This document shows positions 27,001 through 30,000 of a stretch of 64,000 bases of DNA, in pieces. Position numbers: made by a program. This DNA comes from a plasmid. The stretch lies in NCBI RefSeq assembly GCF_988243305.1, contig NZ_OZ547139.1. One strand, 5' to 3'. Numbering within the stretch: the stretch's first letter is position 1; each line of letters opens with the position of its first letter.

Positions 27001-30000
27001 GAACAGGGTCAGCACGATACCGGTAGCTTCTGCGGACAATTCCCCTTCGAACCAGTTACCGCTAACCGATACCGTGAAGCGCTCTGCGCTCAGTGGGTAC
27101 ATGAAGCCGCTACCGCAAGACAGTTCGACGAACTCCCAGGAACCGCCTTGATAATCGGCGCAGAGAGAACGTGCGTGGTTGTAGACACCGGCCTCACCTG
27201 TGAGATACCAGGCGCCGAACAGGCGTGGCAGAAAGGCCATGCGGCGGTTATTGGGGATAATGCGTGCAGTGATGGCGGGTTGATTCAGTTCAGTAGACAT
27301 TTTCTGTACTCCTGCGCCAGTCGGGGCGCTACCGTCGAAAGACCGGATTGCCTTTCGATGTGATTATTATACGTCTAATGAGCCATACCAATCAAGCAAA
27401 ATATTCCCGCCTACCTGAATATTTTCAGGCGGTAGAACTCTTTCCCCTGTCCATTTTTGGGGGCAGGATCACGCCTGCCCCCTTCTGATTCACATGATTA
27501 CTATGACTTTGTTTCAGCGTTAAAGTGTACGGCTGCGATCCTGACCAACGGGATCACCGCGCTTTCCTCATCGAGCACACGAAAATTTATCGCTTCCCCC
27601 AGGTGCATCAGGTTAGCGATAAAATCAACGATGATTTCGGAAACCGGGTGTCCGTCGCAGTCCTGCTCATTCAGGCGCGCAAACAGCGCCAGCGCCTTAG
27701 CGGCCTTGATTGCCCGCTCTTCGTTTTCTTCGTCCATACTGCCGAAACACCATTGCCCCTTTTCAATCAGGGCCAGCGTGTCGTAATAGGCTTCATTCTG
27801 GGACATGTTTTTTCCTCCTGCGCCAGTCGGGGCGCTACCGTGAAAGTTCGCTGCGTTACTGCATGAATTAGCCGTTAATCACCTTCGTGATGCACTCCAG
27901 CGCCTCAGACTCCTGCGGATAAAGTCGGCGTGCAGCTCCTTCACCAGACTGGATTTCTTCCAGCCGGATAAACTGCGCCGCCAGCGCCACGACTTTTTGC
28001 AGCGCCTCGGCATTGACCTCTATCTTTCGATCGCGGGCGGCATCTTCGCGCACCTGCTTTGCCAGGCTCCAGACGGTATCTTTTCCGACGCCATAACGGC
28101 TGTGTGAACTGCATTCCGCGATTTCTGCCAGAACGGCTTCGGCCTCATCGTCAGTGAGGTTCATATCACTGGTGCAGTCATGGACATCTTCAGCAGTCCA
28201 GATCAGAAGGCTGATCCGCTGCTGTGGTTCAAAACTATCGAGAAGCCTTGCGCAAATTTCATTTACGTTACCGTGCATTGTAAAACTCCTGCGCCAGTCG
28301 GGGCGCTGCCGCGAAAGACCGGATGCCTTTCGATGTGATTATTATACGTCTAATGAGCCATATCAATCAAGCGATTTTTCACGCTCATAGCTGCTACAGG
28401 CAACGCTGTAGCAGTTTGCATCCAGTTCTGAAGGCCAGTCGTCACGCCCGCAACCTGACAGCAGGCAGGCGCTGAGGTGCCCAGGGCGATAGTCGAGATG
28501 CTGGCATGAGGCGCAAAGGTCATCATCTGAGATTGAGCGGCCTGCACAGATAGGCGGCGCGCCATCAGTGGGAATTTCTCGAATATGCAGCGTTGTCACT
28601 TTTTTTACTCCTGCGCCAGTCGGGGCGCTGCCGGTTAGCGATGCAGGGGGCTGTCGCCCCCTGCGGCGGTTCAGTCCTTACCCTTATCCTTCATGACTTT
28701 AATCAGCCCGGTAATGGCTGTAATGAGGGCGGCCACGGCCGTGATAATCTGAGGGAGGTTATGGAGGATTTCAGAAGAGGTCATAATGCACCTGTAAGGC
28801 TGTTTAGGAAGGTACTGATTTGAATCAGTAAAAACATTATACGTCTAACGAGCCATATATGCAAGCAAAAAAACGCCCCTTGTAGGGGCGCTGTGATTAT
28901 TTTACATACTGCCAGACATGCGGCGGGATCTTATCCCAGATGCGTCCCGATGCCAGCTCTGCGCGGCGATGGTCGGCGGCAGCCTCAAAAGCCTCGGTGT
29001 CCTCCGGCGGCACCTGTCCACGATCCCGCATGGATTCGTACATTTTTTCCAGTGTGTCCGGGTTACGACTGCGCCGAAAACGGAGAAGGTAAAAACGCCT
29101 CCGTGCCTGATAAACTGTTTCCGCCATGTATCTGCGTCCTGAGCGCCTTGTTATTTCGCATAGTATTCACGTTTTGGTTGAATAAGTCTTCGACTATACG
29201 CCCCTTGCGGGGCGTAGCAGGCGGTCAGCCCCAGGTGCTGTAAAAATGGCTTTCGTTAGGATCGGTCTTATAAGCCTGTTCGTACTCGTCAATGCTGACA
29301 GACGGATGCTCATGGTTTTCACAGATGCGACGGGTCACGGGTTCGCCTTTAAAGTCGTTCAGTACCGGCTTTAACTCGCCAGACATTGCACTGTCTGCTT
29401 TCACCTGCTGCGCAGCGATGCGGCGCAGTACGGCGGTTTTCTTACCGCGCAGGGCGATCACCTGATAAAAACAGGTATTTGTCTGCTCATAACCCCAGCT
29501 GGAAACAAAAACATCACCAAGAGAAACGGAGCCGTTACGGAACTGAAGGGATTGAATAGCCATGTTTATTACTCCTGCGCCAGTCGGGGCGCTACCGCGA
29601 AAAGCCTCATTGCCTTTCGATGTAATTATTATGCGTCTAATGAGCCATATTAATCAAGCAATAAATACATGCCCGGCATGATTTTCTCAGGCCGGGGAAT
29701 ACTTCCTTTCCCTGTTTATATTTCAGGCCGCAAATGCGGCCTGCCGTCTGCATTACACGCGAGGGGGTAACATTCCGGGATAGTGACTGGCAACCAGATT
29801 ATTGATCTTCTCAACCAGCTCCGGGCGTTTAAACGTAATGTGCGCGCTGCCCTTTTTGTAATATCGCACGCTGAAGTAATCACACTCGAACACCTTACCG
29901 TTGAACTGGTTTTCACTGAAAAAGGCATCCAGTTTGGCACCGTCAGAAACACGGTAATCAGGCACGTTACGCCCGTCCAGCACGTAGAACGGCCGCGCCA

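Follow-up and report, generated by a model that had tools for sequence, protein, structure and literature searches.

A 37-codon open reading frame (ORF), hereafter the micro-ORF (positions 28671-28784, minus strand), lies in the leading region of an IncL/M plasmid and was analysed within a 64,000-nt stretch of contig NZ_OZ547139.1 (NCBI RefSeq assembly GCF_988243305.1), hereafter the window. Several described systems invite comparison with it. SidA, MgrB, AcrZ, and MgtS are small regulatory inner-membrane proteins, and the 37-amino-acid (aa) peptide resembles them in size, in its single predicted transmembrane (TM) helix, and in a conserved small-residue face for packing with a larger membrane protein; it differs from them in lacking homology, in being plasmid-borne within an establishment regulon, and in having no known partner. 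The plasmid type I toxins hok/sok, flmA of F, pndA, srnB, and DqlB/agrB of pOXA-48 share with it a length of at most 50 aa, one TM helix, a charged tail, and a compact standalone unit, and flmA likewise lies in a leading region. In contrast to these toxins, the micro-ORF has no detectable antisense or divergent small RNA, mok-like overlapping frame, or family match; its ribosome-binding site is at most weakly paired, and the regulon with which it shares its promoter consists of ordinary establishment genes.

Two further systems concern the expression of leading-region genes. The CUP promoters of the ccg, ardA, and ardB genes in the IncN plasmids pKM101 and R46 are repressed by ArdK (Delver and Belogurov, 1997, as summarised in PMC6289460); as in the window, a repeated module of promoter and 5' untranslated region (UTR) heads successive leading genes. 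IncL/M and IncN share gene content (ccgA1, DUF4942, and antirestriction genes), and the IncL/M micro-ORF uses one CUP-like module. However, no ArdK homologue or operator was identified in the window, and the IncN homologue of the micro-ORF stands behind a long putative hairpin promoter rather than a CUP module. In F and ColIb-P9, single-strand promoters of the Frpo/ssi kind are active on the T-strand as it enters the recipient (PMC11541004, PMC12672017) and drive ssb, psiB, and ardA early there. The sequence upstream of the IncN homologues resembles them in its hairpin, paired -35, partly mismatched -10, and orientation toward the origin of transfer (oriT), whereas the IncL/M copy in the window has no such hairpin.

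Literature searches yielded no description of the micro-ORF peptide. With moderate confidence, and on the strength of sequence comparison, we read the micro-ORF as a translated gene for an early-expressed, ~4-kDa single-pass inner-membrane establishment protein with its N terminus out and its C terminus in (N-out/C-in), the mechanism of which we infer. The peptide belongs to an uncharacterised family of plasmid leading (establishment) regions.

Conservation of the reading frame

With the 37-aa peptide as query, tblastn found matches in 1,632 PLSDB plasmids, and in 1,626 the match covered at least 80% of the query and the frame was intact; 1,153 of those plasmids were at least 99% identical to the peptide, and a separate block of 469 IncN plasmids carried a version with 73.5% identity (MTSTILENLPQIITSLAALITAVTGLIKVLRDKDK). 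Run exhaustively over 1.8 billion representatives, phmmer returned 15 matches, and a profile search of 5.8 billion proteins, queried with an alignment headed by a 40-aa family member, returned 54 matches of 29-40 aa, all named hypothetical and none with a Pfam domain. The exact 37-aa sequence was present on at least 1,000 contigs, always under the name hypothetical.

Codon alignment of eight lineages gave a proportion of synonymous differences (pS) of 0.43-0.82, which is near saturation, a proportion of nonsynonymous differences (pN) of 0.14-0.33, and ratios of nonsynonymous to synonymous divergence (dN/dS) of 0.06-0.52. Codon positions 1, 2, and 3 were variable in 25, 13, and 34 of the 36 columns, respectively. 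Five IncL/M variants differed within the ORF by three substitutions, all of them synonymous third-position changes. The sense frame was open in all eight lineages, and no antisense frame was open in all eight. The peptide is thus under purifying selection across IncL/M, related MOBP, and IncN plasmids, and the frame that an earlier note had picked out from the window alone is conserved in related plasmids. Because the frame is conserved, the micro-ORF is more than a chance occurrence, and sequence comparison identifies it as a genuine conserved protein-coding micro-gene.

The same note had called the peptide unannotated, which holds for RefSeq, where the PGAP pipeline leaves the locus empty or annotates the opposite strand, and does not hold for Prokka-type pOXA-48 records or for UniRef A0A0K4WQ54, which list the 37-aa protein as hypothetical. 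The PGAP product is a 60-aa antisense ORF (window 28643-28825, plus strand; WP_172682139 in pNDM-HK and WP_172684944 in pOXA-48-like plasmids). It corresponds to the Orf27.1 of Baffert et al. (PMC12365149), whose listed identity of 98.3% equals 59 of 60 residues.

The predicted membrane protein

AlphaFold2, run on a 29-sequence alignment, predicted a single helix spanning residues 3-35 with a mean confidence score (pLDDT) of 87. The best 18-residue hydrophobic window, IITAVAALITAITGLIKV, had a mean Kyte-Doolittle value of 2.18, and the family core ranged from 1.8 to 2.5. The N-terminal segment carried a net charge of zero or below in 27 of the 29 members, mostly -1, and the C-terminal tail (the flank past the 18-residue core) was net positive in 25; its charge ranged from -1 to +7, and the four exceptions were three neutral tails and one of -1. 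Taken together, a helix at residues 3-35, a hydrophobic core, and a basic C-terminal tail agree with the single TM helix and charged tail noted earlier. Since the N-segment is neutral or negative and the tail positive, the positive-inside rule predicts an N-out/C-in orientation.

Residues P11, A18, A23, G26, and L27 were at least 90% conserved, and T22 was kept in 26 of 29 members. A18, T22, and G26 form a stripe of small residues at positions i, i+4, and i+8, a pattern typical of tight TM helix-helix packing.

Database searches placed the peptide in no described family. PHROGs gave one weak match, phrog_3399, of function not known (E 1.6e-4); in a profile search of the PDB the only matches were spurious ones to alphaRep repeats; NCBIfam gave NF038396 alone, which scored 13-16 bits where the cutoff is 40; PADLOC gave no match; and tblastn against phages found no match to the peptide. 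The peptide is present in databases only as hypothetical, and it is kin in kind to small mobile-element membrane proteins and leading-region genes.

Organization of the transcription unit

The window represents an IncL/M plasmid. Over the 561 bases around the micro-ORF it shows 100% identity to pNDM-HK and, among the matches listed, to 17 further records; 1,165 PLSDB plasmids matched these bases in all. The micro-ORF, promoter, UTR inverted repeat, and flanking Cys-rich and Hha-like genes of the earlier note were all recovered in place, in the following arrangement (given in the direction of transcription).

28897-29127, minus strand: Hha-like gene (NCBIfam Hha, E 7e-16)
28872-28892, minus strand: intrinsic terminator of the upstream Hha-like (rmoA) gene; 9-bp stem with 6 GC pairs, then TTTTTGC; abuts the micro-ORF -35
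28836-28864, minus strand: micro-ORF promoter; -35 TTGCAT at 28859-28864, 17-nt spacer, -10 TATAAT at 28836-28841
28813-28830, minus strand: stem-loop at the 5' end of the mRNA, UACUGAUU CA AAUCAGUA (whole element TACTGATTCAAATCAGTA / UACUGAUUCAAAUCAGUA); 7-bp stem, 4-nt loop, ~6 nt past the -10
28785-28812, minus strand: C/U/A-rich, G-poor linker followed by the block TACAGGTGC (28788-28796)
28789-28793, minus strand: Shine-Dalgarno AGGTG inside TACAGGTGC, 4 nt (CATT) ahead of the ATG
28671-28784, minus strand: micro-ORF, 37 aa plus stop, MTSSEILHNLPQIITAVAALITAITGLIKVMKDKGKD; encodes the predicted single-pass membrane peptide
28643-28664, minus strand: GC-rich hairpin GCAGGGGGC-GACA-GCCCCCUGC directly past the stop codon; terminator remnant without a T-run, tail ATCGCTAA
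28597-28638, minus strand: UTR-hairpin and Shine-Dalgarno module half, GCGCCCCGACTGGCGC-AGGAG, serving the downstream Cys-rich gene; repeat family D2, 10 copies
28363-28599, minus strand: Cys-rich gene (orf28 of pOXA-48), 78 aa, 7 Cys; next gene downstream of the micro-ORF in IncL/M

The terminator of the Hha-like gene shields the micro-ORF unit from upstream transcription, and GCGCCCCGACTGGCGCAGGAG precedes the GTG start of the 78-aa Cys-rich gene.

A common layout was found in 12 lineages: a -10, a stem-loop 5-8 nt later, a G-poor linker, TACAGGTGCnnT-ATG, the ORF, and an intrinsic terminator whose T-run has been lost in IncL/M. The inverted repeat that had been noticed in the UTR is a conserved feature: each of the 12 lineages folded has a hairpin at this position. 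The base of the hairpin, ACUG...CAGU, is conserved, and its inner stem and length (18-29 nt) vary between lineages with the pairing kept. The TACAGGTGCnnT-ATG junction was identical in all eight aligned lineages and in further ones, and the conserved Shine-Dalgarno block TACAGGTGC occurred once in the window. The Shine-Dalgarno is at most weakly paired, through four base pairs (AGGU/ACCU) with codons 2-3 that recur in 11 of the 12 lineages. At positions homologous to the 28643-28664 hairpin, relatives carry full intrinsic terminators. The mRNA appears to be built for expression and not for silencing.

The 5' palindrome was also considered as a repressor operator, and this was rejected: the spacing of the ACTG and CAGT halves ranges from 3 to 19 nt, and the inner stems compensate. 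Such variable half-site spacing favours an RNA hairpin at the 5' end over a dimeric operator. RNA hairpins at the 5' terminus stabilise transcripts against 5'-end-dependent decay, and the conserved hairpin would probably play this part here.

A CGGCAA(C/U) motif was observed in or near the loop of many module 5'-UTR hairpins, including those of several micro-ORF UTRs and an IncN ardA CUP (loci L010 5215-5245, L011 5215-5245, L015 1330-1360, L022 1060-1085, L028, and L047; L004 3700-3730). It is lost from the short IncL/M micro-ORF hairpin. The motif may be a protein or RNA binding site.

A CUP-like module regulon in the window

The promoter scan by consensus did not list TTGCAT-17-TATAAT, since TTGCAT matches TTGACA at three of six positions. 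The promoter core TGGCTCRTTAGACGYATAAT, comprising the -10 and the spacer, nevertheless occurs in eight copies between 25212 and 34433, all on the minus strand, against a chance expectation of 0. This excess of same-strand copies argues that the promoter ahead of the micro-ORF is real and bears out its description in the earlier note as module-like; the micro-ORF carries the shared core, and the same relation was seen in relatives. A repeat search separated two families on the minus strand, a promoter half (D3) and a half combining the UTR hairpin with the Shine-Dalgarno (D2), which together head successive leading-region genes of the window. The micro-ORF is inserted between one promoter half and one UTR/Shine-Dalgarno half.

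Across 25212-35922 (minus strand), the window carries eight promoter modules and 10 modules of UTR hairpin (GCGCCCCGACTGGCGC) plus AGGAG, and the genes headed by them include klcA, DUF1380, DUF4942, ccgA1, and orf19-orf20. The repeated modules of this region constitute a CUP-like regulon. The spacer between the -35 and -10 of the micro-ORF promoter is lineage-specific and within each lineage matches the spacers of the neighbouring modules, a pattern compatible with co-regulation or concerted evolution.

At the far end of the module-bearing region lie a gene for an XRE/MqsA-like regulator (orf20 of pOXA-48, reported to be required for maintenance of the plasmid; 34906-35385) and orf19 (35378-35884), both on the minus strand and preceded by a copy of the UTR/Shine-Dalgarno module at 35881-35922. 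We regard orf20 as a candidate regulator of the module regulon.

No promoter was found between the micro-ORF and the UTR/Shine-Dalgarno half of the Cys-rich gene in IncL/M. Both the terminator T-run and the following promoter are absent from IncL/M and from the close variant L045, so a single promoter serves the micro-ORF and the Cys-rich gene, which are predicted to be co-transcribed. Relatives have a terminator and a separate promoter at this point, and the operon with orf28 therefore represents a derived state.

A candidate single-strand promoter upstream of IncN homologues

In IncN1 (L004) and in L019, L030, and L043, the ~115 nt directly upstream of the homologue consist of two nested inverted repeats, which make up a candidate single-stranded DNA hairpin at the following positions.

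L004, 2850-2975: candidate single-stranded DNA hairpin
L019, 4853-4978: candidate single-stranded DNA hairpin
L030, 2440-2565: candidate single-stranded DNA hairpin
L043, 1677-1802: candidate single-stranded DNA hairpin

Folded as single-stranded DNA, the region formed one long imperfect hairpin with free energies of -44.7, -29.6, and -37.6 kcal/mol (z -7.8, -5.0, and -5.9; none of 200 shuffles was as stable), and the consensus contained 43 pairs, seven of them with compensatory changes. Every base of the -35 TTGACA is paired within the 3' arm, and the -10-like TACAGT/TACATT leaves two bases unpaired throughout the four lineages, the A at -11 among them. With these features, the hairpin is a candidate single-strand promoter of the Frpo/ssi kind; no account of an Frpo-like element for IncN came up in literature searches. 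In the IncL/M window, no inverted repeat was found upstream of the micro-ORF promoter and no hairpin spanning its -35 and -10.

As a separate observation, a GC-rich element of ~70 nt, GGGCGTTACCCCTTCGGGGCCGCTCTGCTGTGCTGCGCATCGAGCCGGTTCCCGTCTCGCCCC, stands on both sides of the IncN micro-ORF unit (L004 ~2615-2690 and ~3200-3270); Pseudomonas plasmids have matches to a related piece that follows the L019 homologue.

Genomic context of the family

All family members with enough context lie in the leading regions of conjugative plasmids (IncL/M, related MOBP, and IncN). They are encoded on the strand of ssb, of antirestriction genes (KlcA/ArdB or ArdA), and of DUF4942, DUF5983, and Hha-like genes, a few kb ahead of nikA/relaxase. 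In the window, ~5 kb separate the micro-ORF from mobA/nikA and the relaxase; it lies on the strand that carries ssb and klcA, its transcription runs toward oriT, and the T-strand serves as template. Seven other lineages show the same arrangement. The IncN1 homologue lies between ccgC-side genes and ardA, and that of a second IncN group near ssb and korA.

The immediate neighbours vary. The Cys-rich gene was rejected as an obligate partner, the gene after the micro-ORF having no homology to it in L016 and being of klcA/ardB type in L010 and L011; Hha was likewise rejected, with no Hha gene upstream in L011 or IncN.

A metagenome pattern scan gave many chance matches to short or unrelated ORFs, and ~20 of its 36 loci were family members. 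Two weaker hits encode 32-33-aa peptides with an LP...AALI(T/A)A..GL core (L026 655-756 and L027 3387-3485), the former on a phage-like contig with Gp80 and DUF3263 neighbours and the latter on an actinobacterial contig resembling an integrative and conjugative element, with DUF87/TrwB-like neighbours. Family members may also occur on other mobile elements; alternatively, both matches may be driven by composition.

Proposed role and alternative explanations

As an establishment protein, the peptide would be synthesised in a burst when the plasmid enters the recipient, along with the rest of the module regulon; in IncN, the Frpo-like promoter would fire before second-strand synthesis. The product would insert into the inner membrane N-out/C-in and act through its invariant small-residue face A18-T22-G26, together with P11, packing on itself or on a host membrane protein. 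Its role would lie in plasmid establishment rather than in post-segregational killing, it could do harm if the micro-ORF promoter stayed unrepressed, and its effect would depend on host or condition. Any benefit is expected to be host- or condition-dependent because K-12 matings do not need the locus.

Several points weigh against this proposal. Transcription, translation, and membrane insertion are predictions, and both the helix packing and the target are read from a sequence pattern. The window promoter is an ordinary duplex promoter, and "very early" expression is extrapolated from IncN. Taken one by one, the UTR folds did not strongly outperform shuffled sequences (z -0.1 to -2.6). KorC sites have been reported at the korC promoter alone (PMC12365149). 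In a transposon insertion sequencing (Tn-seq) study of pOXA-48 in E. coli K-12, orf27.1 was non-essential for maintenance in input and transconjugant libraries and neutral for conjugation (log2 fold change 0.53, q 0.53, not significant), with insertions in seven of its nine TA sites and no essential sub-region (PMC12365149).

A bolder version, which we put forward tentatively and hold to be rather unlikely, treats the family as a new class of immediate-early establishment effectors. A one-helix membrane protein would be made within minutes of entry from a single-stranded DNA promoter (IncN) or a regulon promoter (IncL/M). Its target would be an inner-membrane protein of the host, for example a membrane-anchored defence effector, part of the division machinery, or a DNA-uptake/exclusion component, and binding would protect or time establishment; derepressed, it would explain part of the lethality of orf20 or korC loss in pOXA-48.

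The alternative that survives best is a Kil-type determinant, toxic to the host when the regulon is derepressed and one reason why orf20 (XRE-like) or korC cannot be lost. Loss of either gene destabilises pOXA-48, and recipients of an orf20-less plasmid elongate and stop dividing (PMC12365149, PMC12361523). The near-consensus -10 and the stabilising 5' hairpin would cause strong overproduction in the absence of repression, and orf20 lies in the same region (34906-35385). Nothing, however, ties orf20 or korC to the module promoters, the reported KorC sites being confined to korC's own promoter; seven further operons driven by modules qualify just as well, and the IncN homologues use a different promoter. 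We consider a Kil function possible but doubtful, and any link of the micro-ORF to the orf20/korC-loss phenotype is speculative.

The earlier note had offered two readings of a membrane-active peptide, a type I toxin-like function and a small membrane modulator. The first would be a membrane-depolarising peptide under antisense RNA control, serving post-segregational killing or abortive defence like hok/flm or DqlB/agrB. It is in keeping with a 37-aa hydrophobic helix with a charged tail, with the standalone ~200-nt unit that has its own promoter and terminator in relatives, with the enrichment of toxin-antitoxin genes in leading regions (PMC11541004), and with the precedent of a type I system elsewhere on pOXA-48 (PMC12365149). 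Defining features of such a system were nevertheless not found. No promoter-like site was found on the opposite strand in the window or in L016, and the one in L010 is weak, non-conserved, and directed away from the gene. In the rest of the 64-kb window, which may not span the entire plasmid, no complementary stretch exceeded 16 nt, all being at chance E-values, so the computational check revealed neither a promoter for the suggested antisense RNA nor complementarity above chance. Rfam had no match at the locus (two chance matches fell outside it), no Pfam or NCBIfam toxin family was recognised, and a Pfam scan of nine members gave sub-threshold noise. Third-codon columns are variable in 34 of 36 cases, leaving no room for an embedded antisense element; with almost every synonymous site varying, a conserved overlapping RNA is excluded. 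The weak, 4-bp pairing of the Shine-Dalgarno and the tolerance of insertions also speak against a type I toxin. We judge this function improbable and would drop the label until an antitoxin or toxicity has been shown, although toxicity on over-expression may still be compatible with the evidence. A small membrane modulator is compatible with everything seen.

A leader peptide or upstream ORF, in which the act of translation alone would control the Cys-rich gene through the hairpin past the ORF, might be suspected in IncL/M, where the ORF, the GC hairpin, and the downstream Shine-Dalgarno fall within 70 nt with no intervening promoter. It is very improbable, as it is the peptide sequence that is conserved (dN/dS far below 1) and most lineages have a terminator for the ORF and a different next gene with its own promoter. 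Least of all can we credit a chance ORF at a non-coding locus or opposite a real antisense gene (WP_172682139, Orf27.1), in spite of the RefSeq annotation of the antisense ORF in many records and its listing in PMC12365149, because the antisense frame has 1-3 stop codons in four of the eight lineages and is thus a shadow ORF, its first codon positions fall on the most variable sites of the sense frame, and promoter, Shine-Dalgarno, and terminator are all oriented for the minus strand.

Implications for plasmid biology

Reading the locus as a micro-gene for a predicted membrane protein corrects the annotation of "Orf27.1". In the Tn-seq study of pOXA-48, Orf27.1 served as a neutral site for insertion of a PTet-sfGFP reporter, and the plasmid still transfers (PMC12365149); reporter plasmids with insertions at this site actually disrupt the micro-gene. 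The micro-gene is intact in ~1,630 sequenced plasmids, yet it has been missed or put on the wrong strand by a standard pipeline. Carbapenemase genes have major carriers in the IncN and pOXA-48-type plasmids, whose leading regions are now seen as islands for anti-defence and establishment, with a third of the common gene families uncharacterised. If the IncN hairpin is active, the micro-protein would be among the very first products in an IncN transconjugant, which fits a role in establishment. The micro-gene provides a concrete candidate for host-specific establishment phenotypes and for the unexplained toxicity of regulator loss.

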